From Squalus acanthias (lineage: Eukaryota): a stretch of 64,000 nucleotides of DNA. The stretch is taken from the NCBI GenBank assembly GCA_030390025.1, contig CM059431.1:126730001-126794000 (forward strand), read 5' to 3'. Positions 3,471 to 52,989 of this stretch are shown here, piece after piece; position 1 is the stretch's first letter, and each line of letters begins with the position of its first letter. A model generated the notes under the pieces. It was not told where the DNA came from. It did no database searches and worked only from the letters and a program-made list of their open reading frames with translations. Position numbers and translations under genes: made by a program.

Positions 3471-4910
3471 AGGTCTTTATCCTTTAACTACTTAGATAGC
3501 ACAATTAACAGTTGACCCAGTATGTCTAAAGTGATTAGCCTAAAGGTTCCGCTGGTACTGCTGTGCTGCTGGAAGTGCGCAGTGTAGACTTTTGCCTGCC
3601 CATCTGATCTCAATGTGGCCCTGTCCCAAATCAAGGGAAAGGCTCTTTTAAACATTAGGGGCCAGAACCCACACTAGTACTCATGCAATACTGGGACACC
3701 CACCCCATGGACCCAGTGAGATTTCAGAGTGGCACCTTGCCACTCCATCAAGGCGGGCACAGGCTGGTCTAACTGAGAATCTGAAAGACAAAAATGTCCT
3801 TTGTTGCTGATCCTTCACTGGTGGATTCCATATGTAAATGACCATCAATGGCTGCATTCGCACCCCCTCTCCCCTGCACCCCCACCCCCCCACCCCCTGC
3901 AAATTAAGGTTTCTCCTGGAAGGAGTGGAAATGGGTTCTACCCCAACCTCCTGCCTATGCACCCCCTCACCAAGCCAGATTTCCACAGAATTTCTGTGTC
4001 ACTATTTTTAATTAATTTAATGTTTGGTAACTTTTGTATTGGTCTTTCTTCTGTTAGAGAAGAATCCATACTTTTTACTTGGTCGAATATATGCAGAAGC
4101 CATCACCATGTTAAAATCCTACAAACCAAGTACTGAGAAACAATGTTCCCTCTAAATTGTCTGTGTTGTGCGAGGCCTATTTATTTCAATGTGCCGTCCC
4201 CTTAAATTTCTGCCTGTGTGCGGTATTTCAAATGGATAAGCTTATGAGCGGCCTGTGTGATACCTTGCAGATTACTGCGCACGTGTGCAGCTTAGAGGGA
4301 ATATTGTTGAGAAGCCCATTTGCCTGGCATGGAATGCACACTCTTCCTCTCTATGGATACAGTCCTCTTACTGAAGTGGAGAGAAATTAAGCACAGTTTG
4401 GCCTGAGACAAGGCCTCATGCCCTCCAAGTGTGTCATGTAGCACTGTTAGAGCTTAACCAGCTAAAACCATGCATTATAGGCGCATACGGTACTGGCACC
4501 CTGAGTCAATCCCTTTTAAGGTCATCTATCGCATTCTTAATTACATTATGGGGGAAAAATTCAGTATCGCCCCGTTTGGGGCGCAATTATCGGCCGTGCG
4601 CCAAGTTTAGCGCCTGGCGCTAATTATCGCCTCCGACTGCAAACTTAGCTTTTATCGCCCCCGGAGTTGATTGGAGCGCTCAATCAGGTGCTACACACCT
4701 CTCTTAAGGCGCAAAGGCCGAGGAGCGAGGCGCTAACTCAGAGCGCGGGCGCAGCACAGGTGCTATCAGTTAGCGATGGAACACAGACACACTGGCGCCG
4801 GCCAGTTCTTGAAGGGGAGGGTCGATCTTGCTCTCCAGCCACACCCTGCTCATTGGAGCCTTGAATCTCGGCCTGGAGAGACCTGTGCCTAAATCTTGCA
4901 GCCAAGGACT

Positions 4911-6677
4911 ATGGAGAGGGCCAGGGAGCGAGCACAGCGCTTCAGCGAGCGGGCCTTGGAGGCTCAGGTTGGCGCGGTGGAACGCAGAAGATCAATACTG
5001 TACCCAGAGAATGGCAGGAGGCCTTTGCCGTGCGATTACAGAAGAGTGTGGAGGGAGGTGGCACAGAGCGTCTCCTCCAGAAGCATGGTGCCCAGGACCC
5101 ATATACAATGTAGAAAAAAGTTCAACGACCTCACTCGGGTCGTCAGAGTGAGTGGCTTTTTTTCAATACCTCTCCACCCCTCCATCTCAACCTCACTCTA
5201 TGGCCAGAAGGTCTTAAAACCCCAATGCCCAACACTCATCCAACACCTATGGCCCTCTCATGAAACACATATGCACATTCCACACTTTGCATACAAGTAA
5301 GGGCTATTCACCTATGGGAGGCACATCAGGCAAGACCATGGCTGTATATTTACTCAGACGCTGTCCTTTTTCTTGCAGGCTAAGCTATCTCATAATAGGA
5401 GACAGCAGCAACGGACGGGTGGAGGGCGGCCTCAGCTGCAAACCCTCAGCGATCTTGAGGAGCGCGTCCACAGGATTGTGGCAAGCCGGGTGATTGGTCC
5501 CGTCGCCACTAGAGAGACCGACCCCGTTCTGGACAGCAATGGTAAGGTCATCACATTTTTGTCCTCTCTCCTTCCACTTGTCCCTCACAACACCAGCCTT
5601 TGACACTTTCAATCCAACTTACTAAATCGCTGCACTCATTCCTCCCTTACTGCCACCCTGTCCTCACGCTAAAGCCACTCTTGTACCTCCCTGCTTTCAG
5701 ATGGTGATTCACCAGCTGAGGAGACGGGCCCTCAAGCTGCCAGTGGGAGTGAAGCTGCAGGCGAGGAGGAAGATGAAGCCGGAGCATCAGTGCCACCCTC
5801 TCCCGAGGAAGCCCATGCCCACACTGGGAATACGCCTTCCCTGGAGGGGAGCAGGGGGGAAGGGTCTGATGAGGGTGAAGCTCCAGGACCCAGCGGGCTG
5901 CAGCAATGTGATGGGGGTAGGGAAGCTCGGGGGCGTTCTCCCCGGAGGGAGAGTATGCCAGCGAGTCCTACTGCACTGGACGCAGAGGAGGAGCGGCTGA
6001 TCGCTGAAATGAACACCCAGGTGGTGGACATGCACACTGAGCTCATGGGTGCAGTGGGAAGGGTGCCCAAATGCATTGAATCACTAGCAAGGAGTGTAGA
6101 GCACTTCGCTGTAGCACAGGTGGATGCCACGCAAATGTTTAGTGCTGCAATTCAGTCACTGGCTGCCGTGACCCCATCTCTGACTGCTCTCATGCAGACT
6201 CAGATTGAGGCCACGCGAGCACTGACTGCTGCCATCCTCGCTGGTTCGGACACATTTCCCCGGGGCTCTCACCGCGCCGCAGCAGGCCAGCAATCTGTGC
6301 TCCAGCAGATTGCTCCGGATGCTGAAGTGCTGCCCCGTGGGAGTGCCAGTGTGTCGGTCGAGCAGGGAGTTGCTGTCCTCTCTCAAGATGACAGCATTCC
6401 TGCTGCCACCACTGTCACTTCTCCACTGCACTTGCCACCGCCTGTAGGACAGACTGCTGCCGCCCATGCAGAGTTGGTGCAGTCTACAGCCAGGCCCTCC
6501 AGGCCCAGAGCTGCTCGAGGCCATCCTTCAAGGGCATCTGCAGTCTCAGGTTCTGACAATCAGCAGCCTTCCAGCAGCCTTGCTGCAGCCACTGGGATCC
6601 CATTACGGAGGAGCAGTAGGGTGGGAAGGGGGGAAGTGCGCAAAGGAAGGAGATCACCCTCCAAGGGCAAAAAGTAG
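4911..6677 (+). CDS. Harbinger Myb/SANT-like DNA-binding protein (NAIF1/MSANTD-like), 3 exons: 4911-5147, 5379-5541, 5701-6677; 458 aa
   Basis: RFS...W..VA..V...RT..QCRKKFNDL trihelix, then RTGGG; GTGAGT/TTGCAG (phase 0) and GTAAGG/TTTCAG (phase 1) introns give one uninterrupted frame. Confidence 0.88.
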
Positions 6678-6971
6678 GAGCTTTGACAAAATGTTGGTCA
6701 TTTTTTTATTAAAGGCCAAGGTTCGTGGTCAAACTTTTGTTTAGTGTTTTGGACATTATCTCCAGGTTGTGAGAACCAGTTATGTTAATGACTGTTTTTT
6801 TGTGTTTCTTTCTATTAGTTTGTCATGAGGAAATGACACACACAGAGTTTGTAAAATAAATACGTTTTTGTTTGGTCTTTGGAATCATTGCTGCCTTGGC
6901 CAGCTTAGGGGTTGCGTGTTGGTTTCATTCATGTTGTTCTCAATGGCAGAAGCCATTTCCTCAGCAGGGGC

Positions 6972-8123
6972 CTAGAAGCGGCTTGCTATCAGCCGTTGAC
7001 GGACGGCCCTTCCAGTTTCTACATTGTGGGCCTCCCTCCCCCCTTGGTGCTGCTGATGATCATCCTCCTCCTCTTCCTCCTCCTCCTCTGGTGGTGCTCC
7101 AAGGCCTGGTGGCATTGGCTGGGTCCTGAGGATTGCCAGGTTATGCAGCATGCAGCACACAACAACGAAGAGGGAGACTCGCTCAGGCGAGTACTGCAGG
7201 GCTCCTCCAGAATGGTCCAGACAGCGGAATCGTTGCTTCAGCATGCCGATTGTGTGCTCAACGATGTTCCTGGTAGCTAGATGGCTCTCGTTGTCCCACA
7301 GCTCAGCAGGGGTGTTGGGCGTACAGAGCGGTGTCATCAGCCAGGTGCACAGTGGATATCCCTTGTCCCCGAGAAGCCAACCACCTGGGTGATGCGGTGC
7401 CTGGAAAAGTTCTGCCACAGTAGTCTGGCGCAGGATGAATGCATCGTGGCAGCTGCCAGGATAGTGGGCATTGACAGCGAGTATCAGCTGTCTGTGGTCA
7501 CAGACCAACTGCACCTTTAAGGAATGGAACCCCCCCTTTTGGTTGCGGAAATCCTCTGCATTCTCATGCGGAGCACGCAAAGCCACATGCATGCAGTCAA
7601 TGGTGCCCTGCACCATGGGGAAGCCCACTATCCTTGCAAAGCCCATAGCGCATTCATGCTGCTTGTCTGGGGTCATGGGGAAAGAGATGTACTCTCGTCT
7701 CCTTTTATAGAGGGCATTTGTGATCTGACGGATGCAGCAATGGACCGTGAACTGGGAGATATTGGTGATGTCCCCAGTAGCTGATTGAAATGAGCTGGTG
7801 GCATAAAATTTGAGAGCCACTGTGATCTTCACTGTCACCGACAGAGACATCCTGCTCCTCAGTTGAGGCTGCAGATCTGGCTGCAGCAGGTGGCAGAGCT
7901 TAGTGACCACCTCCTTGCTGAAGCGCAGCCTTCGCAAACACTGCTCCTCAGACATATTAATGTATGAGAATTGTTGGCGATATACCCTGGGAGAGTAAGG
8001 TCTCCTGTACAGAGGCCTATTGACCCTCCTCCATCTGGCCATGATTGCCACTCTCTCTCTGCATCTCTGTGGCCTCCGAGTCTGCTGGCGCAGGACGATG
8101 CCCCCAATTAGTGCAGCCCCCAT
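6972..8123 (-). CDS. Harbinger DDE transposase (HARBI1-like), 383 aa
   Basis: GTIDCMH, YPGSCHDAFIL, LLGDKGY, RNIVEHTIGMLKQRFRCL, CCMLHN; no stops; first good ATG at 8123. Confidence 0.93.
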   Translation of the reverse strand: MGAALIGGIVLRQQTRRPQRCRERVAIMARWRRVNRPLYRRPYSPRVYRQQFSYINMSEEQCLRRLRFSKEVVTKLCHLLQPDLQPQLRSRMSLSVTVKITVALKFYATSSFQSATGDITNISQFTVHCCIRQITNALYKRRREYISFPMTPDKQHECAMGFARIVGFPMVQGTIDCMHVALRAPHENAEDFRNQKGGFHSLKVQLVCDHRQLILAVNAHYPGSCHDAFILRQTTVAELFQAPHHPGGWLLGDKGYPLCTWLMTPLCTPNTPAELWDNESHLATRNIVEHTIGMLKQRFRCLDHSGGALQYSPERVSLFVVVCCMLHNLAILRTQPMPPGLGAPPEEEEEEEEDDHQQHQGGREAHNVETGRAVRQRLIASRF

Positions 8124-8227
8124 AGTCTCTTGGCAATCAAAGTAATGAACGTCAAAAACCAAAGTACCTGCAAATTTATGCTCAGTAGCCAAAACTACTT
8201 CACACAGCATTGACTTAATGCAGAAGT

Positions 8228-8266
8228 CTCTCTTTCTCTCTCTCAAAATCTCTCTCTCTCTCTCTC
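8228..8266. repeat. (CT)n/(GA)n microsatellite upstream of the transposase
   Basis: CTCTCTTTCTCTCTCTCAAAATCTCTCTCTCTCTCTCTC. Confidence 0.8.
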
Positions 8267-8843
8267 AGAACGAGTGGTGCAAAAATGTCTACCACAGAAA
8301 AAGCCAGGAAGAGGCCCCCTTTAAATAGCAACCCCCCAGCCCCACAGCGACTGGGAAGCGTTCCAGTCTACCATCGTTCATTGCGCCTGGCGGAAAGGAG
8401 GGGGGCGCCACTCAATTTCCATTCTGGGGCGCCCCAAGGGCGTTGCACGCTCAAATGACGTCAAGATCTGTGTGCGCCGGAGATTGGGGCGGTATTGTTT
8501 TGCGCTGCTGCAAAATGTCTGGTCAATTTCGCCAGAGGTGCAGATATCGCCGTGCCCGGGCGCTAGTTGCTTTGTGCCCCATTAGCGCCCTCTTAAGGCG
8601 CTAACGGGAGGCGCAAACCAACTGAATTTTTCCCCCTACAGTTTAAAATGGTAGATATGACTATGTAAGGTGAGAAGCCTTTTTTCAAAATTGTTGGAAA
8701 TGTAACATCTGCTGCAGCAGGGTGACATTTTTGAACACTGCTGAGATTGTCTTTCAAACTGCTATAATAGTGCTTTTAGTGTCTGGAAGCTTGTTTATGA
8801 AGAAAAGTTTCTTCAGTTCTCAATGATGACATTTTTCCTTTAT

Positions 8844-8966: not shown

Positions 8967-9251
8967 TTGTAATCAGTACATTAATGATTACAATTGAGGG
9001 GAATCTTCCATCCAGTTTATCTTCTAACCATACTGAATCATGTGGCAAACTAATGAGACAATATGGGAAAAAGCTATAAAGTGTTATAACTGTTTTCACT
9101 TTAGCACTAAACGGATGCTAAAATGCGGCAGCTGTTAATTGTCATCATTCCTAGTAGGAGCCTTTCTCATTATTATGCAATTATGCAAATCTGTATGTGG
9201 AGACTATCATTTAGTATATATTAACAGTTAACAAACCAGAGAGTAAACAAT

Positions 9252-10039
9252 GGCCCAGAATTTGCGATGGGTAATAACAGTGAACGAACAGCGTTTGCTG
9301 TTATTACCCTTTTGAAACTGACCGCAAGATTCAGGATGTAGCACATGCACATCCTAACGCCGACATCTTGAAATTGCAGTCAGTCATTCACAGCTCTGAC
9401 ACTGGCTGCACTGTGGCGCCCCCCGCCCCCTCCCACTACACACTGCCCACACAGCCGGTAATCTGTGTAATCTGTGAAATCAGGGAAACTGACGAAAACT
9501 TTCCCTTTTCTGCGGTAATTACGCTGTTAAATACCCCATTAAAATTTAGATCCTTTTGGATTAGGTGTAACTATGGTTTTAACTGCTGAACAAATGTTAT
9601 TGCCCTGAAAAACTAATTTTAATTTTGCGGAGTGTCAAATTTATCAATTTTAATGAAAATTAAAAATTTTAAGAAATTAAAAAAAATAGATTTTTTAACA
9701 AGTTCGTTCATCTTTATTTCAGATTTACCTTTTCCTCATATGAGAGCCCCAATGTTTGTTTTGCTGTCTATAACATTTTTAAAATGTTAGGATCAAAGGA
9801 GCTTACTCATATCCTTGTTCCCTGTCTGTGAGAATCCTGCATTTTGATGGGCTGCTTAAACAGCTGGTTGATGTCTCAACAGCTCATACTAGGGATTCCC
9901 CATTAACTCACGCTGATTTCAATTGCACATCAGAAAAGCTGCAGTTCTCGCCACAGTGATCGCGAGATCTTTGTAGGAAGCTTACTTCGGGGCCAGCGGG
10001 GAACACCTTTGCTTCACCACTGACCGCAAATTACGGGCT
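9252..10039. mobile_element. Harbinger-type MITE
   Basis: TIR GGCCCAGAATTTGCG / CGCAAATTACGGGCT; flanks AAT/ATT; no ORF. Confidence 0.65.
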
Positions 10040-10124
10040 ATTAAATGTTCTACATTTTTAATTCATTGAATAATATCTACTGAACAGGGTATTCCAGCCT
10101 TTACCAAAGTGGTGAAACACTTTT

Positions 10125-13100
10125 TCAAAATTTGTTCTCAGGGTGTGGACGATGCTGCCAAAGCCACACTTATTACTCACCTCTAGTTGTACTGAGAAGG
10201 TGTTGGTGGGCCAGTCCTTGTGCTGATGGCACTCCCACGATGTTGTTAGGTAGGGGAATTCCAGGATTTTGATCCTGCAATGATAAAGGAATGGCGATAT
10301 GTGTCCAAGTCAGGAATGATGTACGACTTGGAAGAGAAATTGGAGGTGAAGGTGTTCCCATGATCATACAACTCTTGTCCTTGGTGGTAGAGGTCACAGG
10401 CTGGGAGGTGCTTCTGAAGTACACTAAAGAGTTGCTGCACTACAGCCACAGCCAGTGGCAGAGAGGGGTTGATATTGAATCTAATGGCAGGAGCACTTAT
10501 CAAGCAAACTGCTCTATTCTGGATGGTGCCGATCTTCTTGAGTTTTGTGTGAGGGGAACTTGATGGTGTTCCCATGAAATTGTTGTTCTTGTCTTTCTCA
10601 GTGGTAGAAGCTATGGGTCTGTTGAAGAATGCTTTGTGAGTTGCTGCAGTGCATCCTTTAGATAGTAGATACTGCAGCTGTGGTGCGATAATGGTGAAAG
10701 GAGTGGATATTGTGTTCTATCACGTTCCTGACTTGAGGTTTGTAGAGGGGTCACAGGCAAGCAGAGTACTCAGTCTTGGCCCTGATGTTATAGCCACAGC
10801 GTTGCAATTAAGCTTCTGGTCAATGGTAACCACCAGGATTTTGATGGTGGGTAACTGAGGCCGGAATTTTCCGGGGGGTCAGCGGGCGGGATTGGTGGCA
10901 GGTCGGGTGGGAAATTTGATATTTTTGACAGTGGGTCAGGACCCCGTTGTTAACCCACCGCCATGCGCCTTTCCCGATGTCAGGTCTGTCAGCGCTGAGC
11001 AAATCCGACAGGCAGCGGCGGGCAACCTAATTCAGGTAATTAGTGACTTGTTTAGAGCCATTTAAGAATGATTTTCAGCTCATCTTTTGCATTTGACAGC
11101 TCGCCCACAGGGTCCACGCTGGTCGTGGACCACGTCTGTGAAGCTGAGGCGGGGGTTCAGTGGCCATTGAATCAGCTGTTGAGTTGACAGCTTCAAATGT
11201 ACAGTAAAAGCTCCCACCTTACAGGGATATCTTCCCTCAGCCACAAGCTCTTGCTCACTGCATTTCCACAACAGATTCACCATGCTGAAAGTCTTTACAC
11301 AAGTCTCCATCCAGTCTGACCTCATTACCTCTCTCACCATTGACAGATCGCTTCTGTCATCTCTACTTCACCTGACATCTATACCATCAGCATGGGTGCC
11401 CTTTATACTCTCTCACCTTGGTCCTCAGAATCCCACCACGATCAGCCACAACACCAGCAGCACCAGGCAAACCAGTAGCACCAACAATGACACCAACCTT
11501 CTCCGCAATCAACTGATGCTCCACAGGACAGAGGGCATCAGCACCCGACCAAATTGCTGCCCGGGAGGCCAGGGATGGCCTCACCATGGCCAGATTTACT
11601 TCACTTGATGCTTTACACCCTGGCTGTCACATGATGTGCCAAGTTGGCACCACTCCACACCAACACCATAAAGCATCCCTACAATACCCAAGCCATTCCT
11701 TTCACACTCATCACCATTGGGGGGTACCGTTATGTCTCACCATTCAGTGCAACTAACTGAGCCACTTCCAAAGGTGCACACAAATCTGTCCAAGAAAGCA
11801 AAGTGTTGAAAATAAAGGTTTCAATGTTTGACACCACAGTAACAGAAACTTCACATCAACATTGCATAAAACATCCAAGTGCCTACCCCTGTGTGTTGTT
11901 AGTTGGTATGATTGCACTAGGATGAGGGTGAGTGTGAGGGGTGGCTAGTGAGATGGGGATGCGATAATATAGATAGAGAGGGCTGGGTGGAGGTGCAAGG
12001 TAAGTTGGTGTGAGTAAGGATGTGCAGGAGTAGGGTAGGGAAGGCAGAGTGATGGGGATGTGATGAGAGGCACAGCAGGATGAGGTTGAGTGTGGCTTTG
12101 TACTAACGTTTTGTGATCTACTGAGATCATTGAAATGTTTGCGGCACTGCACCTGGTCCTCCTGACCACATCCCTACTTGTGCCCTCCTCTGCAATGTGC
12201 AACCAGGCTGTGTTGATCTCCCGGGAGGTCTCTTCCACCCATGGGAAGGGAAGAGGACCTCCCTGTGTGCTGTGACTCCCTCCTTAATTATATGGAGTGA
12301 GTCAAGGGAGAGTCTGGGTGCAGCCCTGTGCCTTTGTGCAGTCATTGTCAGTGTTTGCAGCACCTCAATGCTGTTGAACACTGACAGCACAAATGTGAAA
12401 ATAAATTTGGACATGGTCCTTTTAAAGAAATCAGCTGATGACGTGACATCAAATGACGTCACCAGACCCGCTTCCTCTAATTGGACAGGAAACACACTGG
12501 GCGGGCTTAACAAGCCCTATTAACAGAAATTCATTTCACAGAGTGAAATGGAGATAGCAGCAGGGTTGGGACCCGCCACCAACGTTGCCCGCCACGGACC
12601 CGCCGAGGTGAGCAAAATCCAAGTCTCAATGATGGTGGTGCTTTAAATTTCAGGGGAGTTGGTTGGGCTTTTCTTGTTGGAGATTTTGATTGCATGCTAC
12701 GAGTGGCCCAAGAATGGATCTTAACCAGGCCCTACTGTAGGATGGCATGGACTGCTTCATTATCAGAGGAGTTGTGAATGGATCTGAATTGTCAGCGAAT
12801 AGCCACACTTGGGACCTTATAATACAGGGAAGGTCATTGATGAAGCAGCTGAAGGTGGCTGGGCCAAGGACACTTCCCAGAGAAAGTAGCGCAGTGGTAT
12901 TCTGGGGCTGTGATGGTTTGCTCCAACAACCATGGCCACTATTTTTGTGTCAGATATGACTCCAGCCATTGGAGGGTTTTTTCCTTGATCACCATTGACT
13001 TCGGTTTTGCTAGGACTCATTAGTGTCATACTCAGTTGAAAGCTGCCTTGATTTTGAGGGCAGCTACTCTCTTGTCTCTTCTGGCATTTAGTTCTTGCCT

Positions 13101-21861: not shown

Positions 21862-22604
21862 GCTTCAGAATTTGCTGGCAAAATATTGGCGAGTTAAAGC
21901 TGCAAGGCGTTACTAGTGCGTAAAAAATTCAGCAATTTGTGGCAAGGAAGATATATGGCGTGAGTTGCGAATCGACACAAATTTCAGGATGATTTAGCCT
22001 CACAAAAATAGGAACTTACCATCAATTTCACCATGAGTTTCAAGAAATTGCTGGATTTGCACCATAAATATTAATTAAACTTGTCACAGAAAGTTAGGGC
22101 TGGTATTTCACAATGTGAGGACCCACTTAATGATGAGATTTATGTTCCTGCAATGCCACTCAACATCGGAGGCTCAGAAAGGGAACAATTGAAACTGTTG
22201 GGTCTCATCCGTGCAGGTAGTAAATTGTTCCGAGAGGTTTTTTTAAAATTTTAAATGTTAAATTTTAAATGTTTTTCTTTCTGTCTCTTTTTTCTCTCAC
22301 GCTTAATCCAATCTTTCTTTCCATCTCGTTATTTTTCTTTCTGTACCTAATTTGACTTTAATTCACCCTATTTCCTTCTCTGTTGTTCGCTCCGTTTCTT
22401 CCTCTACCTTAAATTTAATTGGTAAAGGAGATAGTTTATTTGTTGTTCAGCAAGGTCCCAGATGCTCCACTGACCTTGCTGCGCTGTTATCAACTCGCAC
22501 GTCCAGCCATTTGCGGTGCAAAAGGTTTTCGTGCTGAAGGGTGCGGAAAAAATCCAACTCAAGGGGCACGCCGCAAGATGCCCCACTCCAGCAAATTGTG
22601 GCCC
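21862..22604. mobile_element. Harbinger-type MITE
   Basis: TIR GCTTCAGAATTTGCTGG / CCAGCAAATTGTGGCCC; flanks AAT/ATT. Confidence 0.6.
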
Positions 22605-38339: not shown

Positions 38340-41300
38340 GGGCTTGATTTTGCCAGGCCCAAGGAGGCGGGATTGGAGGCATGTGAGTTGTTAAAATCGC
38401 CAAAAATGGCGGGCAGGCTTGATCCCGCCTCCATCCTACCTCCGAGCAATTTTCCCAAAAGTGTGTTTTCTGACCACCGTTCCACCCCGCCTCCAAGAGG
38501 CGGGATAGGCCCTTAAGGCCCTTAACAACCTCTATAATCCCATTTTGAGAGGCCTTTCCGATTTTTAGTCATTCTCCCCATCCCTCACGCCTCCTCTGGA
38601 ACACGCCAGGTAATGCTAGCAGCCTCACAAGTGGATGGCTGACGAACAGCTGCAGCTCCACCATTACAAAGGAGTTTTCACCAATGATCATTTGCAGGTG
38701 GCAGAACATTGTTGTTTCAGGTCTGGGGGAACTTTTAGCAAGCATACTCAGTGTTGTGGAAGTTTGGAGCCTGACACCCATCTCCAGTGTGACCTCCTGG
38801 GAAACCCCTCTCCCCACCTTGACTAAGCGCTTCCTCAACTGAAGCATATACCAGAAGCATGGCGACCATTTAATTCCTTTCCTCCTGGACATCAGATTCG
38901 GATGAAGACCAGCCGCAGCAGCAGCAGAACCATGAACAACAGCAGCACCAACAGCAGGAGCATCAACAGGAGCGCCAAGTTGCTAGTCACCCACCTGAAG
39001 ATGCATAGGCCAGAAGTCGCCAGAGCGTGACCATATTGCTGCCCGGGATGCAAGGGACACACTCAGGTTGGTCAGATTTGCTTAGCCTGTACAATCAAAC
39101 ACTTTTGCCTCGCACCTTCTTACCAGAGCATCGACAATGGACAAGAACCTGCAGATTCCTATCACTCTGACCACCATACCGACAATTGCAAGTCGCTCTA
39201 AGCCCTCAATGTGGAAGTCCCAATTGCGAAATGACACAGGCCACAACTTCAACAGTTTGCCATCAGATTTTTTTATCACAACAAGCAACTGATGGCATTT
39301 CAAAAACAAACACAACGTAACACCCAAGTGCCTACCCTTGTGATTACTTGTGCATTATCTTCCTCTTACGCGTGCTCCTACATGGTGCTTCCCCTGTGGC
39401 TTCAGCAGATGTGGAGGCCCTTTGCTCACTTTCTTGCTGCTCCTGTCTTGACACCTTTGGCGGTTGCGAATCTGTGAGGGCTCAGCAACAGTCTGCTGCT
39501 CCTGAGGCTGTGCAGGGGATGAGACGCCCATCTCAGTTGGGTGAGGACTCTGGTGGGGCTCTGACCGAGGGCTTTGCAGTGGCATGGTCGTTTGAGCGCT
39601 TGGAGAGGAGCCCCCACTTCCTTGTTGTCTGCCACCAACATCCCTCTCATGGGTCAGCCCCACTTCAAGCTAGCAAGTGGCTTGACAGCACCTTGCTGCA
39701 CTTCAGGGGGGGCATGAGGACCCGTTTCTGCACTGGAAGTCCTACTCCAGAGGACTTCCATGAAGGTCTGGTTTCTATGCTCAGTAGCTGACCATCGCTC
39801 CTCAAGAGATGCCAGTCTATTCTGAACAATGACCATGTTTTCTACACTCTGGCGACTTAGTTCCTCCATGGCCGTAGCCATCCTCTCCTCTACTGTAGCC
39901 ATCCTTTCCATGGAGGTTGCCATCCTTTCCGTGGTGATGCGTTCATGCGCCAATGCCTCCACAAAGGCTCTGCTCATGTTCGCGATGGACTCCTCCATTC
40001 GCTCGACACTCGCAGCGACCCTGGAGTCAAAACCTGCCAGAGACTCCTGTAACTCTTCCTGGAGTTCCAGCACCACTCTCCTTCTGGATGGACCCGGAGT
40101 CACAGGGTCGACATGCAGCTGAGCCGAGCTGGCAGAGTCCTGCACCCTCCGACGAGGACTCTCCACTGCTGTCCCTGTCTCCACCATCTGCTGTTGCTCA
40201 ATTGTGAGCTGTGATACACCAGGTGCCAACACTATTCTATCTCACGAAGGTCCCACCGAGGTGTGAGTGTCTGCGCTGGTGCTGGGTGCGCTGAATTCTG
40301 CTGAGGCTGCGCCCTCAGAGGTTGCAGCTTCCTCTGAGGAGTCTGGAAGCTCAGGCTCTTCCTCCTGGACAGTGGGGACAGGGGCTTTCGATGGTCCTGT
40401 GGGGGTGTAAAGGAAAGAGTTAAAGATGTGAGGTCAAGGTTACATGAACATTGAATAGTGCAGATGATCATAAGTCAACCTGTTAGAGCATCAGATTCAT
40501 TATCAGTGACTCATGCAATGTCAATGAGAGAGATGCCAAACTATTCTGACACCAGCTTGCTGCGATGCGCCCATCTGTCCATCCCCCACTTGGGAATCCT
40601 CCTCGATCTCGGCGATTTCCAGGGCTGCCTCCTCCCAGGCGGTAAGCTGGAGAACTGAGGGTGGCCCGCCTCCTGTCCTCGCTCTTTCCCTCTTATTGTG
40701 GGCTCTCTTTTCCTGCAATGAGGGACACAAGTGGAGTTTGATTGAGAATGAAGGAGTGAGTGTAGATAATCCATAGCATATATGCTTAGAAGGATACAAA
40801 GGACCATCCCTGTGTGTTGAAAGTTGTTGTTGTCATGGCATCACAGTGATAGGGCTGCATGGTCGAATAGTTAAGTGAATGTGACCTTCGAGAGAGAGGG
40901 AGTGGGTAAGGGTGCAGGCATGTAAGTGTCAAGTGGGATGTGGAGGAAGAGGTTGGCAAAGCAGAGTGCTGTTGAGGAGAGGCGATGGGGATGAGATTGA
41001 GGGTGATTGGAAAGTCATACTCACTTTTCCTGTGCGGAGAAGGTCATGAAACCTCTTCCTGCATTGCAGCCAGGTTCTGCGGCTCAGCGAAATGGAGTTG
41101 ACCTCCTGGGCCACTTGTAGCCACACAGCTTTTGTCTGCTGGGGTGGCTTTTTTCTCCCTGAGGAAGGGAACAGCACCTCCTTATTACATCTGGCTCCGT
41201 GCACCAGAGCTTGGAGGGAGGGTTCATCAAACCGAGGTGCACACTTTTGCTTGATCGTGGACATTGTCTGGAAATCAACACCTTCATACAATTTGCAGAG

Positions 41301-41544
41301 CCTTTGCAGTCTCCAGAGGAAGCAAGGCTGCTTGCAGGTCTTAAATCCAGCAGCATTGATGACATCATTGGAGGCGACTTTCTGTATGAAAAGACTCAAT
41401 GGGCCAGGTGTTCCCACACGCAGGAAATCAATTGCCCAATTAGGGGAAAATCCCACTTATTCAGCACTTCACTTAGGAGTCGGGGTCCTGACATGATTTC
41501 CACCTGACACGCCCCAGCCCGCCCACACTGTCAAAATCCAGCCC
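38340..41544. mobile_element. Harbinger deletion derivative: transposase core lost, whole Myb gene kept
   Basis: TIR GGGCTTGATTTTGCCAG / CTGTCAAAATCCAGCCC; TSD TTT/TTT; removing it restores the Tx1 ORF1 frame (EEVERL|LLSLKVG). Confidence 0.92.
39355..41264 (-). pseudogene. Harbinger Myb/SANT gene; exons 41264-41025, 40712-40553, 40396-39355; stop near 40243 and frameshift near 39670
   Basis: Trihelix WLQVAQEVN...RTWLQCRKRFHDL, RTGGG, coiled-coil ERMA repeats; same intron phases as 4911-6677. Confidence 0.82.
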
Positions 41545-43119
41545 TTTTACTGAGTTTGAAGGTTGGAGATAAGTTCTTGGCGATATCTCTGCTATATTCT
41601 GAAGAGGTGGTTGTCTCATTCTTAAACCTGCTGGTTTATATTGAGGAAGATGTGCAAAAAAAAAAGTTGGAGTTGTGGGACATTAAAATATGCTCGGCAA
41701 TAAAGAGGAGATACTATCCAGGAACGCGGGTAGCAGATGGAACCCGTTATATACAGGTGCGGTTCCCAGAGGGGGTGAAGTCATTGCCATACAGCATGAA
41801 ATTCGAAACAATGGAAGGAGTGCAGTACTTCCGGGTACTGCATGATAACTAGGTGAAGGTTTGTTATTATTGTCTTGGCACGACCAACTTGTAAGAAGCT
41901 GTCCAGACTTGTACTGTTATAACTGCGGCGAGTCAGAACACATTGCTCGGAGCTGCAGGGCCGAGAGCTGTAGGGTGTGTCACAAAGACCCCACCCACTG
42001 TAAGTGTGAGGCAGAAGGAAGCCCCTTAAGTGACGAGGAGCTGGGAGAAGGAGCGGAGGTGTGAGTGGAGCAGCTGGAGGAGCGGAGCAGGCGGAGGACA
42101 CAGCCAGCGAAAGGAAGGAGAAAAGAGCGCAGGAAGTGGCAGAAAATTGTGGAGCCGAGAACAGGATGGAGATAGTGGAAAACACACTGAGTACGGTGGA
42201 AAAGGACAAAGACAGCAGCGGGCAGCATGGGTCACGGGCAGAGTCAAGCCATAATACAGCTCGGCTCTCCATAAAGAATCGGGTGTCTGTGGGGGGAGCG
42301 GAGGTGGGAGCAGGGTAAGTGTAAGTACTCCAAAGAAAGACGGGGAGTCGGACGTCTCGGGGAGCAGGAGGGGTAATACAAGGAGAGGGTGCAAGAGGCA
42401 GGAGCCTTAAAGGGGCAGCAGGACGGGAGCAGGGAGACAAAGACGCCAGAAGGGAGCAAGATAGGTGAAGATGCGCCATTGTCCCAGAGAGAGAAGAAAC
42501 AGGGAGCAAGGGTCAGTGGTGGAGATGAGGACGAAGGGAGCGGCACTGTTGGAGAAACCGTGATAGCAGGAAGGCTCTCTCAGGGAGATTCTGGGGGCAA
42601 TTTTGCCAGCGCTCAGGAGGTGGGTTTGGAGGCGGGTCAGGTGTTAAAATGGCAAAAAATGTCGGCAGGTTCCGATCCTGCCGTCAACCCGCCTCCGTGC
42701 AACTTTGCCAAAGGCGGGCTTGCAGACTCCCGTTTGGTCCCGCCACCATGCGGCAGGATAGGCCCTTAAGGCAGTTAACTGGTTGATAACTGCCTGTGTA
42801 ATCCTATTTTGCTTGCCCTTTTAAATTTTACCACATTTTCAGCATGTTCCATGTCGTTCCCAAACCATGCCAGTTAATTGTGTCGGGTTCATAAGTGGCT
42901 GCCTTCCTGACAGCTGCAGCTCCACCATAAAAACGAAGCTTTCAACAAGGATCAGCTGCAGGTGGCAGAACTTTGTTTTTTCAGGTCTTGGAAATCTTTT
43001 TGCAGGTCTACTGATTTTGGAAGTGGTGAAGCTGAGATCCATCTCCATTGTGGCCTCCTGGGAAAACCCTTTCCCCACATTTACTGAGCGCTTCCTCAAC
43101 TGAGATATCGACCAGCAGC

Positions 43120-44333
43120 ATGGGAACCATTTATTTCCTTTCACCCTGGTCCTCAGAATCGGAGGAAGAGCAGCCATGGCAGCAGCAGAACCAGGAACAA
43201 CAGCAGCAGCAACAACAGGAGCGCCAACCTGCTGCTCACCCACCTGAAGCTGCACAGGGCAGAAGGCATCAGCGCAGGGAAGCATGTCGCCGCCGGGGAT
43301 ACCCCCAACACTGGGTTTACAGGCTGAGGAGGAGCTTCCTCAACATGAGTGAGCAGCAGTGCCAAAGGAGGCTGAGACTTTCACGACAGGTTGTCAGAGA
43401 CATCTGCTCAATGCTGCACCAACACCTGGAGCCCAGAGGAGCGGGTGGACATCCCTTACCAGTGGCTGTCAAAGTCACCACCGCACTCAATTTTTTTGCT
43501 TCAGGGTCCTTCCAGGGATCATCAGCAGACATCAGCGGCATCTCCCAGTCGGCCGCACACACTTGCATCATGCAGGTAACCAATGCCCTCTTTGCCAAGG
43601 TGCACAATTACATCCACTTCTCCATGGATCAAGCAAGTATAACCGCGCATGTGGTTGGCTTTGCAAATATGGCAGGCTTGCCAAGGGTGCAGGGCGTCGT
43701 AGACTGCACACATGTGGCCCTTAGGGTACCCTATCACAACCCAGCTGTTTTTGTCAACCGCAAGGGCTTCCACTCCCTCAACATGCAGCTGGTGTGTAAC
43801 CACAGGAAGGGCATTTTGCATGTTTATGCGAAGTACCCTGGCAGTTGCCATGACTCGTTCATCCTGCGGCAGTCTAGTGTGCCTCCGCTCTTCAATCCGC
43901 CAAACCAACTTTCCGGATGGCTACTTGGAGACAAGGGCTATCCCCTGAAGACGTGGTTAATGACGCCGTTGAGGAGGCTATCGAACGAAGCTGAGGAGCG
44001 CTACAATGCCAGCCACATTTCAACCAGATCCATCACTGAGCAAACCTCGGCTTGCTGAAGATGCGATTCAGATGGCTTGACAGGTCAGGTGGAGCCCTAC
44101 AGTATTCAGCAGCCAGGGTCTCCAGAATCGTCGTGGTCGGCTGTGTACTGCATAACATCGCACAGCATCATGGCTTGCAGCTGCCTGAGGAACAAGTGGC
44201 TCAGCGCATAGCCTCCTCAGATGAGGAGGAGGAGGAAGACCTTGCAGAGGCGGATGCGCTAGTTCCAGCAGCACGCGAGCACATTGCTGCCCGAGATGCA
44301 AGGGATGCACTAATCGTTGCCAGATTCGCTTAA
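43120..44333 (+). pseudogene. Harbinger transposase, frameshift near 44050; N-terminal polyQ
   Basis: [44 protein letters not shown]. Confidence 0.9.
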
Positions 44334-44614
44334 GTAGACAAATGTAACAAATGTGGCTGGCACCTTCTTAACACACCATTCAGAATGGACAAGAACCTGT
44401 GGGTTCCTATCACTCTCACCACCATCATTACAAACTCAAGTCTCCCTGAGCCCTCAATGTGGAATTTCCATTTCCGAGATCACATAGGCCAGAACTTCAA
44501 CTGTTTGCCATCACTTCTGTTTAATCCATTCACAAAAGGATGACAATGTCTAAAATTATACACAACAGAACAGAACAGAACACCCAAGTGACTGCTCTTG
44601 TGACTAATTGTGCT

Positions 44615-46886
44615 TTATCTTCCTCTTACGCGTGCTTCTACGTTGTGCTTCCCCTATGGCTGCAGCAGATGTGGAGGCACCTTGCTCACTTTCATGCTGC
44701 TCCTGCTTCGACACCTTTGGCGGGTGTCCTCTGGGTTTGCGAGCCTTTGAGGGCTCACCAACAGTCTGCTCCTCCTACGTCTGTGCAGGGGCTGAGATGC
44801 CCATCTCAGTTGGGTGAGGACTCTGGCGGGGCTCTGAGCGAGGGCTACTCAGTGGCATGGGAGTGTGAGCACTTGGAGAGGAGCCCCCACTTCCTTGTTG
44901 CCTGCCACCAACATCCCTCTCATGGGTCAGCCCCACTTCAGTGCTAGCAAGTGGCTCGACAGCACCTTGCTGCACATCAGGGGGGCCATGAGGACCAGTA
45001 TCTGCACTGGCAGTCCTACTCAAAAGGACTTCCATGAAGCTCTGGTTTCTCTGCTCAATAGCTGCCCATCGCTCCTCCAGAGATGTCAGTCTATTCTGAA
45101 CATTCACCATGTTTTCCTGACTCTAGCGACTTATTTTCTCCATGGCCATAGCCATCCTTTCCACGGAGGTAGCCATCCTTTCCACGGAGGTTGCCATCGT
45201 ATCCGTGTTGGTGCGTTCATGCGCCAACACCTCCACAAAGGCACTGCTCATGTTAGTGATGGACTCCTCCATCCTCTCCACACTCGCAGTAACCCTGGAG
45301 ACAAAACCTGCCAGAGACTCCTGCACTTGTTCTTGGAGTTCCAGCATCACTCTCTTTCTGGATGGACCCACAGGCACAGGGTCGACATGCAGCTGAGCAG
45401 AGCTGGGAGCGCCCTGCGTCCTCCGACGAGGACGCTCCACTGCTGTCCCTGTCTCCACCACCTGCTGATGCTCACTTGTGAGCTGCGATACACCAGGTGA
45501 CAACACTACTCTATCTCCCAAAGGTCCCACCGAGGTGTGTATTTCTGCGCTGGTGCAGGGTGCGCTGAATTCTGCTGACACTGTGCCCTCAGAGGTTGCA
45601 GGTTCCTCTGAGGAGTCTTCTGGCTCCGCTTCTTCCTCCTGGACAGTGGGGAAAGGGGGCTGTAGATGGTCCTGTGGGGGAGTAAAGGCATGAGTTAGAC
45701 ATGTGATATTAACGTAGCATGCACATGGAATTGTGCAGATGATCTTAAGTCAATCTGTATTATCAGTCACTCATGCAATGTAAATGAGAGAGATGCAAAA
45801 CTATTCTGTCACCAGCTTGCTCTGATGCGCCCGTCTGTCCATCCCCCACTTCCAGATCCTCCTCGGCTCCAACGATCTCGGGGGCCGCCTCCTCAGCGCT
45901 GGTGAGTTGGGCTATTGAGGGTGGCCCTCCTCCTGTCTTCGCCATTTCCCTCTTATTGTGGGCTCTCTTTTCCTGCAATGAGGGACACAAGTGGAGTTTG
46001 AGTGAGAATGATGGAGTGCACGCGTGTTTTGGGGCAACACGGTGGCATAGTGGTTAGCACTGTTGCCTCACAGCGCCAGGGACCCGGGTTCGAATCCGGC
46101 CACGGGTGACTGTCTGTGTGGAGTTTGCACATTCTCCCCGTGTCTGCGTGGGTTTCCTCCGGGTGCTCCGGTTTCCTCCCACAGTCCAAAGATGTGCGGG
46201 TTAGGTTGATTTCGCTATGATAAATTGACCCTTAGTGTTGGGGGGGGATTAAATACGTGGGGTTACGGGGATAGGGTGGGATATGTGTCGGTGCAGGCTC
46301 AATGGGCCGAAATGGCCTCTATCTGCACTTTGGGGATTCTGTGATTCTGAGTGTAGAGAATCCATAGCATAGATGCTTAGAAGGACACGAAGATGGAGTG
46401 AGGTCCAAATACCAAGGACCCTCCCTGTGTGTTGTTAGTTGTTGTCATTGCATAACAGTAATAGGGAGTATGAGGGCAGCATATTCGATTAGTGAAGTGA
46501 TTGTGTACATAGAGAGAGAGGGATGGTTAAGAGTGCAAGGGATGTAAGGGTAAAGTGGGATGTGTAGGAGTAGGTTGACAATGCAGAGTGCTGGTGCTGT
46601 GAGGAGATGGGGAGCAGTATGAGGGTAAGGGTGATGGTATACTCACTTTTCCTGTGCGGACAAGGTCATTGAACCTCTTTCGGCTCTGCAGCCAGGTTCT
46701 GCCACACATCGATCTGGAGCTTACCTCCTGTGCCAATTGCAGCCACACAGCTTTGGTCTGCTGGGGAGGTTTTTTCCTCCCAGATGAAGGAAAGCGCACC
46801 TCCTTTTGACCTCTGGCTCCCTTCATCAGAGCATGGAGGGAGTCATCATCGAAGCGAACTGAGGCCTTGGGCCTTGAGCTAGACAT
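44615..46886 (-). pseudogene. Harbinger Myb/SANT gene; exons 46886-46647, 45972-45813, 45671-44615; stops at 45123 and 44775
   Basis: Collinear with 39355-41264; splice sites at matching positions. Confidence 0.82.
46031..46349 (+). mobile_element. HE1-like V-SINE inserted in Myb intron 1
   Basis: A box TGGCATAGTGG, B box GGTTCGAATCC, V-domain GTCTGTGTGGAGTTTGCACATTCTCCCCGTG, CR1-like tail; absent from the homologous site near 40755. Confidence 0.9.
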
Positions 46887-48902
46887 TTCAGGAGTAGCAA
46901 ACACTTAGCACTCTGGATGTACAGAGGGAGAAAATAAACCAAGGCTGCTTGGAGCCCTTAAATACAGCTGAATAAATGACGTCAGCAGAGGCGATTTTCA
47001 GACCCAAAAGACTAATTGGGCCAAGGTTCGCACACGCAGGGAATCAATTGCCCAATTAGGGCAAAATCGCAAATTTATCCCGCCTGACAGCGGAGGCGGG
47101 AGCGGGACCCACCGACCACCTGACCCGCACCCAACCCGCCACCGATGGCAAAATCGAGCCCTATGTATCTGACAGGGAGCAGGGATGGGAGATTACAGAA
47201 GAGCTCGAGAGTGAGGGGTCAGAGGGGGACAGAGACATGGAAGTAGGGGGTGGGGTGGCATCATGTGGAAAGGGAAATGTTAGTGAGGGGCAGAAAGAGG
47301 GAGAAGGGGCAGCTTCTCGGCCCAAACCTAATGTCAGGAAGAGGCTGAAACTGCAGGTAAGGTTCAAGCAGGAGGTGAAAAAGAGCCGGAGGCTGCAGGA
47401 GAAAGCAACAGTTGCCCAAAAAGTTGGGAAGGATCATGAGAGGAAGGAAGGGCCGAAGATTAAATGATGGGGTGATTATCAGGCACACTTCCTTTATTAG
47501 GAGCCATGATTACATTGGTCTCGATTAATGTGAACGGACTGAGGGGTGAGAAGAAATTGCAGCAGTTGTTGCAGTGTTTTAAAGGCACTGACCTGTTGTG
47601 TCTGCTAGAAACCTTTTGGGATGAGGATATCTTAGAAAGAGTTCGGATGGTTTGGAAGGGAGAGGTGTTTGCAAGTTACACAAACAATAACCGTAGAGGG
47701 GTGGCTGTTTTGGTGTGTCCGTCCATAAAAGAGAAAGTTGCCTTGGTGGACAATGACACTGAGGGGAGATTTTTACAGCTAAAAGTAAAAATGGAGGCAT
47801 TTAGTTGCGATCTCTTAAATATCTAGGCGCCGAACGACCATTGCAAGCATCACGAGTTTTTTCGGTGGTGATTCACTGAAGTGGAAGAGGAGGAAAACCC
47901 TTGTATAGTGGGGGATTTCAATGTATTTTTATCTCGGATGGACATTTCAGCCCGGATGACCTTTAACTCCAGAGGGATGTTTGTAAAAATGATGGCAAAT
48001 TTAAATTTGAGAGACTCATGGAGGGATCGGAACCCCATAAAAAGGGAGTTTTCCAGGAGAGGTTGGGTGGGTGATGTTTTAAAACAGAGCCGAATAGATT
48101 TTGTGTTAAAGCGGGAAGGGTTAAATTCTGAGGTGATGGAGATTTATTATAAAAAAGTATTTTTCAGTGACCCCTCGGCTTTGGTTCTTAAAATTAGGAA
48201 CAGCAGAGTTAAGATCAATCCAGGGGTGTAGATTTTAAACAATCAATACCTGAAAGAAATTGCTTATAAAGAAGGGATTTTAAATATAATAAAGAATGCT
48301 CTGAAGGAACCTTTATTCTTGAAAGGAAGAAGAGTTTGGTGTGACAATTTCAAATATGAGGTAAAAGTTTTCCCAGAAGAGAATATAAACAGAAGGTTTA
48401 CAGATATCTGTAAAGCAGTTGATGGAGGGGATAAGGGAGCAGAGATTAAGTGGGTGGTTTTAAAGGAAGAGTGGGAGTTATTGCAAGCTGAAAAATGCAA
48501 GTGGGCCATTCTCCGTGCAAAGGTTAAAGATGCATTGGAGGGAGAAAGATGACCTAGATATTTTCTAGAGCAAGAGAAGCTGCGACAGAGATTATCATTA
48601 ATTGAAGAGTTGAAGGTTGGGGAGAAGATCATTAATGTAAGTGGGGAGATTTTGGTGGCAGCTAGTTGATTTTATCAAGAGTTATATACAAAAGAAGGCA
48701 TTTCTAAATTGGTGATGGAGAAAGTTAGTGCTTTTATTGAAGAGGGTTTAAAGGAGGATGAGAGAAGCATGAGTGATAACGAAGTAGGATTAGCAGAAAT
48801 AAAAGTAGCAATAAGTGGAATGAAGCGGTGTGGGGGGGGGGGGGGAAGCCCAGGGTCCGACGGACTAAGTGCAGAATTTTATAAAGAGTTTTTAGAGATT
48901 TT

Positions 48903-49779
48903 GGCCAGAATTTTGCCAGCGCTCAGGGGGCGGATTTGGAGGCGGGACATCCGGCAAAATCGCAAAGATTGACAGCAGGCAGGAAACCCGCTGTCAACCC
49001 GCCTCCAATCAATTTTCCCAAATGTCGGGTCCTCGATTTGCACATGGACCCGACACCTAGCCGCGAGAAGAAGATTATAGCCACTTAACTGCCTGTTAAA
49101 GGTTGTTAACAGGCAGTTAACAGGCTCTTTTGCAATTTTGACACTTCTACTTCGGGCTTCCTGACGTCCGGACACCACGTCAGGTAAGTGTGGTGTGTTG
49201 TGAGTCTGCTGTAATGTTTCTGCATTGATGACAGCTGCAGAAGTAGTGTGAAGGATCCAGTGGTGCACTGGTGAGTTTCAGAGGTAAGAAAATGTTCGGA
49301 ATTTCATTTTTAATGCATTTAGACTTTTGTGTAGGTAACAAGTTTTCAATTGTATGTGTAGTCCCACCTCATTGGGAGAACCTCTCTCACCAATGACAGA
49401 TCGCTTCTGTAACCTCACCTGCAGCTGCCATCTGTTCTAACCTAAAGAGGGAGTCACTGGAGAGCCTGGGTTCAAGAGCTCACCTTTGTACAGTGATTGT
49501 CAGTGTTTGCAGCACCTCAATGCTGTCAAACACTGAGAAATCAGCTGTCAAAAAAAATTGTGCATGGTCCCTTTAAGAAAACCGGCAGATGACATGTCAT
49601 CAAATGACGTCATCTGACACGGGCTTCGTTTTAATTGGCCGGCAAACCCGCAGGGCAGGCTTAACAAGGCCAATTGACGTAAAATCACGTCTGTGGGCCG
49701 GATGTAGTTGGGGGCGGGACTGGAACCTGGAAGCCACCTGACCCGCTCCCAAGCTGAATCAATCGAGAAAATCGCGGCC
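48903..49779. mobile_element. Harbinger MITE in Tx1 ORF2
   Basis: TIR GGCCAGAATTTT / AAAATCGCGGCC; TSD TTT/TTT; removal restores EFLEILSPLLLEVF. Confidence 0.9.
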
Positions 49780-51761: not shown

Positions 51762-52478
51762 GGGGGCAAAATTGGGTGCCTTTGCACCTCCCGTTAGTGC
51801 CCCCAGGGGGAGCTATCAGGGGGCAAATGGCCTTTTGACCGGGCGCGGCGCTGACATCAACTCCCACCATATTCGGCAGGAGTTTTGCGGCGGTGCTACA
51901 ACATTGCGCCCCGATCTCCTTCACCTGGAGATCGTAACATCATCACTGTGCGCATCGCCCCGGTAGCGCCCTGGACCCGAAATTGACTTTCGCCCCCTGC
52001 AGCAGCGCCGGTCGAAAACACCGACAACTGCAGCAGGCGTGCATCGGGCGGCCGGCCACTTCGGGGGCGATGATTAAAGGCGAGGTGGCCGAGGTAAGTA
52101 AAAAAAAACTTACCTTTCTTGTTCCAGTTTTTTCGTGCGTGTTCCTGCCCGCAATCGATCAGCCCGGCACTCTGCTTGAGTGCTGGGCTGATTACGCGGG
52201 ATCGCGGCTGCCTTGGTGGTCCAGATAGGTCATTTTTCTATTGCAGAGCCTGCAGCGATGGCCCTTCCCTTTAAGGAAGGGAAGGAGCCTTTGAACGTAG
52301 CAGAGCTGCACGGCCCAGTGTGGAGCGCTGCTGAAGTCTCCGCCCTGCCTGCTGTCGACTGCGTTCCAAGAAGGAAGTAGAGTGCTTGATTTAACGCTCC
52401 ACTTCCGTCCTGGAGCGCAAAACCGAATTCTTTAAAAGTTTAGAAACTTTAACACCTGGCTATAATGAAGTTCTCCCC
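51762..52478. mobile_element. GC-rich Harbinger-type MITE in the Tx1 zinc-knuckle region
   Basis: TSD TCT/TCT; imperfect GGGG...CCCC ends; removal restores CPVCGTRDETLSHLMVLC. Confidence 0.8.
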
Positions 52479-52989
52479 TCTGTCCCATTTAATGGTGTTA
52501 TGTCCGCAGTTAAAGAATTTTAAGTACTATGTTTGACAGTTGTGTGAGGTTTTCTTGCTGGGTGGGGACCGAAGAGCGAGAATGGGAATCCCGTGGGACT
52601 CAATTTTGAGATGGGGATTGCAGGAGAGTCTGGCCGAGTCTAGCGGAGCAGCAATTCATTTAATGTTCAGTTTGGCTAGATTTGTGATTGTGCAAAGAAG
52701 GAATGCTCTGTTTTTTAAGGGGAGGAGAATAAATCTAAAAGAGTATTTTAAATATAAGTTAAAAGATCATTATAAGGCTCTGTGGATGTTTTATTCAGAC
52801 AGGAATTTAAAGATAGTATTTTATGAATAACTTTCTGCCTGTCATTTCCAGCTTTGCTTCTCTCCCTCCTGAATCTACACTCAGGTACCCGTCAAGACTG
52901 ATGCTTGGGGGAGCATCATTACCAATTTCCTATGGAAAAGGCACAGATGATAGAGCGCTTTTACCACCTGGCATGCTACCAAGTCCATT

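Follow-up and report, generated by a model that had tools for sequence, protein, structure and literature searches.

Harbinger-Type Elements in the Window

Harbinger transposons sit between 3-bp target duplications, and several elements at one Squalus acanthias locus raise the question of why their two flanking triplets differ, mostly at the central base. The window is the whole stretch of 64,000 nucleotides that was analyzed. An earlier note on this DNA had proposed that an excised element carries donor bases to a new target. Our analysis leads us to think that the elements are probably ordinary, that their mismatches arose after insertion by mutation, slippage or rearrangement, and that the centre bias is unproven.

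Terminal inverted repeats (TIRs) were present in pairs on all 11 Harbinger elements, with the starts that the earlier note had given, and elements and triplets read as it had stated. The element at 4550..8636 (TIR match 16/16, flanks TAT/TAC, mismatch at position 3) carries both Myb and transposase genes. Its transposase frame (6972..8264, minus strand, 429 codons stop-to-stop) matched DDE_Tnp_4 (PF13359, E 1.1e-36), and its top named relatives were shark and ray entries labeled 'putative nuclease HARBI1', with 64% identity at the best rank. A Myb/SANT DNA-binding frame (4893..5300, plus strand) matched Myb_DNA-bind_5 (PF13873, E 2.4e-07). Centre mismatches flank the nonautonomous element at 9252..10039 (AAT/ATT, the left triplet being the reverse complement of the right), the element within a LINE at 10859..12625 (TGA/TCA), the nonautonomous element at 21862..22604 (AAT/ATT, with a degenerate left TIR and a poor flank motif) and the element in ORF1 of a Tx1-type LINE at 42593..47161 (TCT/TAT). 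The last has a broken transposase, with a DDE_Tnp_4 (PF13359) match at 43036-44058. Identical triplets flank 32482..33889 (TTT/TTT; 13.9% different from its relative 10859), 36292..37155 (AAA/AAA, in a CR1-type LINE), 38340..41544 (TTT/TTT; 18% different from its relative 42593), 48903..49779 (TTT/TTT; a relative of 36292, in ORF2 of the Tx1-type LINE that hosts 42593) and 51762..52478 (TCT/TCT, with a weak right TIR). The element at 26410..27119 lies in a CR1-type octamer tail. No Myb/SANT gene was found in the scanned frames of the 38340 and 42593 elements, and 10 further TIR-like starts in the window had no convincing partner end. A DDE_Tnp_4 transposase, a second Myb/SANT gene, short TIRs with a 3-bp duplication and an extended target preference were found, as in PIF/Harbinger (PHIS) elements. 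The elements are most likely ordinary Harbinger-type transposons, each between 3-bp target duplications.

Triplet Register and Host Continuity

Scored with a profile derived from these very ends, the chosen register came out on top at 22/22 ends within ±2 nt; end 52478 was a close call (5.0 vs 3.5). The preference around the triplet was palindromic, and the positions of the flank motif A-N-N-Y / R-N-N-T were satisfied in 8, 11, 8 and 7 of the 11 elements. Outer triplet bases were all A/T (W-N-W), falling into 2 ANT, 1 TNA and 8 TNT/ANA triplets. The AGA/ATA reading at 26410 was not upheld. This site lies in a slippage-prone octamer tail, and the flank motif fits ATA two bases further out, not AGA. 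It is better read as ATA/ATA with 2 putatively slipped nucleotides or as a perfect 5-bp ATAGA duplication, the latter having been offered as an alternative in the earlier note. At 51762, a 4-bp TCTG duplication fits equally well, and none of the frames opened in a 300-nt test.

The claim that removing an element plus 3 nt restores the LINE host held at four sites and was ambiguous at 26410 and 51762. A 3-nt gap was seen at 36292 against a CR1 paralogue and at 10859 against one of two spanning LINE paralogues, with the LINE majority in agreement. The reading frame opened at 48903 only when 3 nt were taken out, and taking out 3 nt at 42593 carried the Tx1-type ORF1 frame onward. The host was therefore continuous at two of the four centre-mismatch sites (10859 and 42593), so flank swapping does not explain these two. 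LINE paralogues and the LINE majority gave C as the host centre base at 10859, making the left TGA the altered, non-target copy. A protein search for the target triplet of 42593 (TCT vs TAT) returned nothing. The left AAT of 9252 was matched without difference by contigs from two samples.

Position of the Mismatches

The reported centre bias, five of six mismatches, is present in the counts and falls to four of five once 26410 is dropped. The binomial of 13/729 is correct as equal-rate arithmetic (P 0.018 for 5/6; 0.045 for 4/5; each to be multiplied by 3 for a position picked afterward), but it is overstated in assuming equal mutation rates. Between 9100 and 12800, the rate of change at G/C sites exceeded that at A/T sites by a factor of 2.8-2.9. 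With these measured rates, P for the centre excess rose to 0.07-0.12, because the outer bases are all A/T and mutate more slowly here. Comparing centre with outer positions by Fisher's test gave P 0.0096 (5/11 vs 1/22), or 0.031 without 26410 (4/10 vs 1/20). A triplet-level null was dropped because conditioning on either copy gives bias. Were the same test applied to each of 214 independent windows, at least one would reach P ≤ 0.018 with a probability of 0.98; this is a rough upper limit, as 11 elements are not present in all of them.

All four centre changes were transversions (P about 0.045 at a transversion fraction of 0.46). Reverse-complement flanks occurred at all three sites with self-complementary outer bases (AAT/ATT, TGA/TCA and AAT/ATT), so that three of the four centre changes are exact complements. 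Centre mismatches were present at 3/3 such sites vs 1/7 others (Fisher 0.033; 0.061 with 26410), a grouping picked after the data were seen.

Element Age and Expected Decay

Same-family pairs in the window were 13.9-19.7% different, a divergence at which 4-7 mismatches are expected per 33 sites. Of 3701 places in the stretch with 9252 and 10859, only 183-190 departed from the majority of aligned contigs. In two relatives with a divergence of about 7%, hardly any contigs covered the families of these two elements, though missing cover is weak evidence. Both flanks could not be viewed together in these two relatives, where one contig stops at 9233 and another departs at 9219. The contig tables ran on for 170 letter rows and 4567 loose ends beyond those listed, and of the runs with small word shares the analysis used X11 and X12. 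At the young age of these two families, 0.8-0.85 centre mismatches would be expected per 10 elements, with P(≥4) of 0.005-0.006; at twice that age, this probability was 0.06-0.07. Overall, the mismatches are too numerous only on the assumption that every copy is as young as the two dated families. Standing against a later change of the flanks are the young age of this stretch, the uniform transversions and the three exact complements at self-complementary sites.

Relatives in Bacteria and Metagenomes

IS702-type elements of the bacterial IS5 family are distant DDE relatives of the window elements and share the 3-bp duplication, mostly ANT. In contrast to the window elements, they have one gene, their copies are very young, and the mismatches that withstood the empty-site test do not favor the centre. 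A common cutting chemistry was assumed. The sample comprised 104 young copies; 70 of 117 loci were left out, as were six without a callable TIR pair. Perfect duplications flanked 94 of the 104. Two single-base mismatches passed the empty-site test and a third probably did, each at a different one of the three positions: L114 (ACT/AAT, picked as a seed for its mismatch; ACT at the empty site of 9/9 relatives), L343 (TAT/AAT; TAT at the empty site of 1 relative) and, as the probable case, L363 (AAG/AAT). The resulting rate of non-target bases was about 3% (2-3/104), and about 0.3 such cases would be expected from mutation alone. Each of the three has a same-sequence sister copy that perfectly duplicates the non-target triplet. 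Five of the six testable centre-only pairs had rearranged flanks, including both testable AAT/ATT pairs, which came from draft genomes. None of the 104 copies had a reverse-complement flank pair, though most have ANT sites. The empty-site test was uninformative at L118, L148, L164, L336 and L380, and L095 was left out.

A degenerate pattern derived from the element ends gave no matches in viral and metagenome contigs. Alignment of the transposase gave 80 metagenome loci and none in viral or prokaryote contigs. Among the 49 scanned for TIRs, only L001, L008 and L030 had the look of a bounded Harbinger element, and none of the three lay in a demonstrably continuous host. L001, with identical 16-bp TIR arms, is flanked by CAG/CTG and may be an assembly chimera.

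Origin of the Mismatches

Frequent ligation of donor overhangs across a single mismatched centre base, whether into a new target or by return of the flipped element to its own gap, appears the less probable account to us. In its first form, as put forward in the earlier note, the element exits with 3-nt 5' overhangs of its old duplication, the outer bases pair with a new target and repair fixes the donor centre on one side. This geometry has precedent in mPing, whose duplications are proposed to be cut in a staggered manner (PMC4561436), in the donor TTA/TAA that moves with mPing into Cas9 cuts at engineered junctions (PMC11254759) and in the 4-nt overhang that stays on piggyBac (PMC7351741). 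The non-target left copy at 10859, the transversions at all four changed centres and the non-target bases of L114, L343 and probably L363, whose sister copies duplicate that very triplet, also speak for it. However, the bacterial rate of about 3/104, spread over the three positions, compares with 4/10 central mismatches here. L114 was itself chosen for its mismatch, and the bacterial picture would equally result from gene conversion or from polishing of the assemblies. In the mPing passages, a TCA/TCA donor left 45 of 46 insertions scored TTA/TAA, with only one otherwise. Donors would be expected to resemble the 8/11 TNT/ANA sites, yet the mismatches gather at ANT/TNA sites. Sister copies differ at the outer bases (TNA at 10859 vs TNT at 32482; ANA at 36292 vs TNT at 48903), and donors drawn at random would therefore be expected to mismatch their targets at more than the centre. 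Carry-over to a new target is accordingly judged unlikely.

Flipping in place, for which we see still less chance, would have the element cut out with 3-nt overhangs and religated inverted into its own gap. Such ends would pair only at self-complementary outer bases, with one centre mismatch per junction and left and right triplets that are reverse complements of each other. This is exactly what was seen at 3/3 self-complementary sites and around L001, and the passages on mPing describe its capture at breaks, apparently via end joining and with orientation uncontrolled (PMC11254759). Flipping requires a very high flip rate, though, and leaves 42593 unexplained. The possible chimerism of L001, the absence of reverse-complement pairs among the 104 bacterial copies and the rearranged flanks of the two AAT/ATT pairs tested in draft genomes weigh against it as well, as does the lack of an inversion joint among the contig joints listed, beyond which 439 more lie. 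Template switching or gene conversion between ends or copies could also have rewritten the centre base, perfecting a palindrome, and predicts the same complement centres. Such quasi-palindrome correction was ranked low, as very improbable, because the neighboring TIR bases were not homogenized: the first 12 bases retain 3, 4 and 4 mismatches at 9252, 10859 and 21862, respectively.

Change of the flanks after insertion is thus the reading we prefer. Point mutation would account for mismatches, 26410 would reflect slippage, and 9252 or 21862 possibly has rearranged flanks. The perfect duplications of 94/104 young bacterial copies and the rearranged flanks of five of the six testable pairs there speak for this reading, as do the 45 of 46 mPing insertions scored TTA/TAA. 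The outer bases would seem conserved as slow-mutating A/T, with a centre that is often G/C. A swap of flanks among copies sharing the outer preference may leave a difference at the centre only, and a small tally from one of many windows could give an apparent bias. If so, the finding matters little, amounting to decayed duplications on ordinary transposons. If donor bases were carried over or elements flipped, the flanks would be natural evidence on the cutting and joining of Harbinger ends. In many copies, one of the two flanks would then record an earlier state, making donor-to-daughter chains readable from the genome and calling for caution in mPing-based engineering. Some pipelines discard copies without identical 3-bp flanks (bioRxiv 10.64898/2026.05.26.728016), and such filters would, in that case, remove the informative copies.

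Comparison with Known Systems

Rice mPing/Ping/Pong resemble the window elements, according to the relevant passages, in a DDE transposase with a Myb protein, a 3-bp duplication, a tolerant centre and an extended target preference (PMC4561436, PMC11254759, PMC2836001). The mPing duplication is given there as TWA, whereas the window triplets are W-N-W, mostly TNT/ANA. That donor triplet bases remain on the excised element is already published for mPing, as those passages report. Its nonmatching duplications were engineered, and natural centre-mismatched insertions are not described in the passages on mPing. For piggyBac, the overhang reported in the source's passages is as long as the target stagger, making carry-over geometrically possible; unlike Harbinger, piggyBac belongs to another superfamily, uses hairpin chemistry and is strict for TTAA. 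Its junction outcome at noncanonical sites is reportedly covered by Li et al. 2013. Among PHIS groups, Pangu targets ANT, NuwaI CWG, NuwaII C|TNA|G and PIF/Harbinger TWA (PMC4482050). None of the 11 window pairs is TTA or TAA as strict PIF/Harbinger would have it, and by triplet alone 2 of the 11 are ANT, 1 is TNA and 0 are CWG. The window elements nevertheless share with these groups 3-bp duplications in which the outer bases are fixed and the centre is free or two-valued (PMC4482050).

Results and Discussion

The window is vertebrate DNA dense in repeats, in which 11 Harbinger elements, named by their start positions, carry paired terminal inverted repeats (TIRs). Their left/right flanking triplets are TAT/TAC (4550-8636), AAT/ATT (9252-10039), TGA/TCA (10859-12625), AAT/ATT (21862-22604), AGA/ATA as first stated (26410-27119), TTT/TTT (32482-33889), AAA/AAA (36292-37155), TTT/TTT (38340-41544), TCT/TAT (42593-47161), TTT/TTT (48903-49779), and TCT/TCT (51762-52478). 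TIR pairs and triplets were as an earlier note had listed them in 11/11. An element-end profile, derived from those same ends, favored the chosen register at 22/22 ends. The 3-bp register is supported independently of the triplets by a palindromic flank motif (A-N-N-Y / R-N-N-T), whose positions are satisfied in 8, 11, 8, and 7 of 11 elements. Element 4550 codes for a Myb domain as well as a DDE_Tnp_4 transposase; the transposase of 42593 is broken. Among named proteins, those closest to the window's transposase are from sharks and rays and are annotated as "putative nuclease HARBI1". In 8/11 target triplets, bases 1 and 3 are identical (TNT or ANA), unlike the TWA palindrome typical of PIF/Harbinger. 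Three related elements (26410, 38340, and 42593) are all T-N-T when read in element orientation. The 11 elements belong to the PHIS/Harbinger superfamily and are ordinary for it, though they lie outside the strict TWA group (triplet classes are defined in PMC4482050).

Other repeats were also observed. A single Tx1-type LINE (41545-52800), with a zinc-knuckle ORF1 and an endonuclease-RT ORF2, hosts three separate Harbinger insertions (42593, 48903, and 51762). Degraded sequence at about 52850-53900 resembles, by eye, a Harbinger transposase fragment that lacks a recognizable TIR pair, and such copies escape any duplication tally. Related LINE copies form close inverted pairs at 16258-18612 and 55936-60565 (arms 79-86% identical). 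Contigs of the window's species cover the families of 9252-10039 and 10859-12625 deeply, but those of two relatives at about 7% divergence cover them hardly at all, a hint of lineage-specific bursts. A metagenome Harbinger locus (L001, 631-3297) has identical 16-bp TIR arms and reverse-complementary CAG/CTG flanks; it could be an assembly chimera.

The earlier note had placed five of six flank mismatches at the central base. At 26410, the motif matches ATA two bases further out and the host is an octamer tail with slippage already visible; on these grounds AGA/ATA was replaced by ATA/ATA with 2 additional nt, or by a 5-bp repeat without mismatch. Its removal leaves four center mismatches and one outer mismatch among 10 elements, so four of five stay central. 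As for the claim that duplications in LINE hosts are true, a net 3 bp is supported at 36292, 10859, 48903, and 42593; among the four center cases, a continuous host was established at 10859 and, by reading frame only, at 42593. At 10859, the LINE majority carries a central C in the loose contig ends from each of the four runs, which identifies TCA on the right as the target copy and TGA on the left as altered.

Equal rates at the three positions give P = 0.018 (5/6) or 0.045 (4/5), with a threefold position-choice penalty still to apply. The stretch 9100-12800 departs from the contig majority at 183-190 of 3701 places, and its G/C sites change 2.8-2.9 times as often as its A/T sites, a tally that takes in CpG decay and the LINE host. 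Since outer target bases are all A/T and centers are G/C in 3/10, the center's expected share becomes 0.43-0.46 and P rises to 0.07-0.12, so the earlier binomial, computed under uniform rates, overstates the bias. The center bias is weaker than first stated and unproven. The absolute mismatch count is harder to dismiss. The probability of at least four center mismatches is 0.005-0.006 if every element is as young as 9100-12800 suggests, 0.06-0.07 at twice that age, and about 0.2 at three times; this age comes from the stretch holding 9252 and 10859, two of the 11 elements. As 214 windows of this genome were surveyed, one window in such a tail is expected. Divergence between same-family copies within the window is 13.9-19.7%, which sets a ceiling for twice the age. 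All four center changes are transversions (P about 0.045 given the measured fraction of 0.46). At sites with self-complementary outer bases (ANT, ANT, and TNA), the left flank is the reverse complement of the right in 3/3, and center mismatches occur in 3/3 there vs 1/7 elsewhere (Fisher 0.033, grouping post hoc).

Cyanobacterial IS702-type elements, which are distantly related DDE elements, have a 3-bp duplication that is mostly ANT. In a first sample, 47 of 117 loci were callable: 31 perfect, 7 mismatched at the center only, 1 at the third base only, and 8 multiply. Nine long-contig genomes, two picked for holding a mismatch, yielded 104 callable pairs, of which 94 were perfect, 8 had one mismatched base, and 2 had two. 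Among the 59 unselected copies, the corresponding counts were 52, 6, and 1. The empty-site test, tallied without L336 and L380, was passed by loci L114 (ACT/AAT, center; ACT in 9/9 relatives), L343 (TAT/AAT, position 1; 1 relative), and probably L363 (AAG/AAT, position 3). It rejected L146, L339, and L351 as true mismatched insertions, together with L143, L301, and L309 from outside the 104-pair set. Flanks were rearranged in 5/6 testable center-only pairs, including both testable AAT/ATT pairs. The host is continuous at L114 and L343 and probably at L363, giving 2-3 real cases vs about 0.3 expected (private divergence 0-0.0013 per base). L114 (1436-2374), L343 (401-1618), and L363 (401-1618) are very young copies with a one-base duplication mismatch. 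For each, a same-sequence sister copy in the same genome has the non-target triplet as a perfect duplication; for L363 this is the rare AAG, carried by L365. The three may stem from conversion or from carry-over of donor bases, with a frequency of about 3%; the pattern fits low-rate carry-over and also gene conversion or polishing, with no center bias.

Change after insertion would account for the window's mismatches and is, in our judgment, the probable source. Carry-over, in which the excised element takes donor triplet bases into a new site, is rather unlikely: its donor-overhang step is already published for mPing and the 2-3 bacterial cases fit a low rate, but they lack the center preference, and the complement pattern at self-complementary sites suits it less well, since TNT/ANA would be expected of most donors here. 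The confinement of complementary flanks to such sites suggests instead that the element is excised with 3-nt overhangs, turned around, and religated into its own gap. Such ends would pair only there and leave the complement at the center, as in the window's 3/3; we regard this as improbable. Gene conversion, which the bacterial pattern also fits, is very doubtful as the source here.

No report of natural center-mismatched Harbinger duplications was found in a search that covered few subscription journals; supplements may bear on the point. PMC2836001, in the portion available, gives a single triplet for each insertion site and so has no power to test flank mismatch. For mPing, a staggered cut through the duplications with 5' overhangs has been proposed and the center base shown to be tolerant (PMC4561436); a TCA/TCA donor gave 45/46 insertions in TTA/TAA, the available part of that paper leaving unstated whether the scoring used reads across the junctions or mapped target sites. 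Engineered mPing junctions hold the donor TTA/TAA, and an intact duplication is stated as the outcome of free transposition (PMC11254759); the piggyBac overhang is described in PMC7351741. Compared with these systems, frequent fixation of donor bases at natural targets would be new; the underlying mechanism is known.
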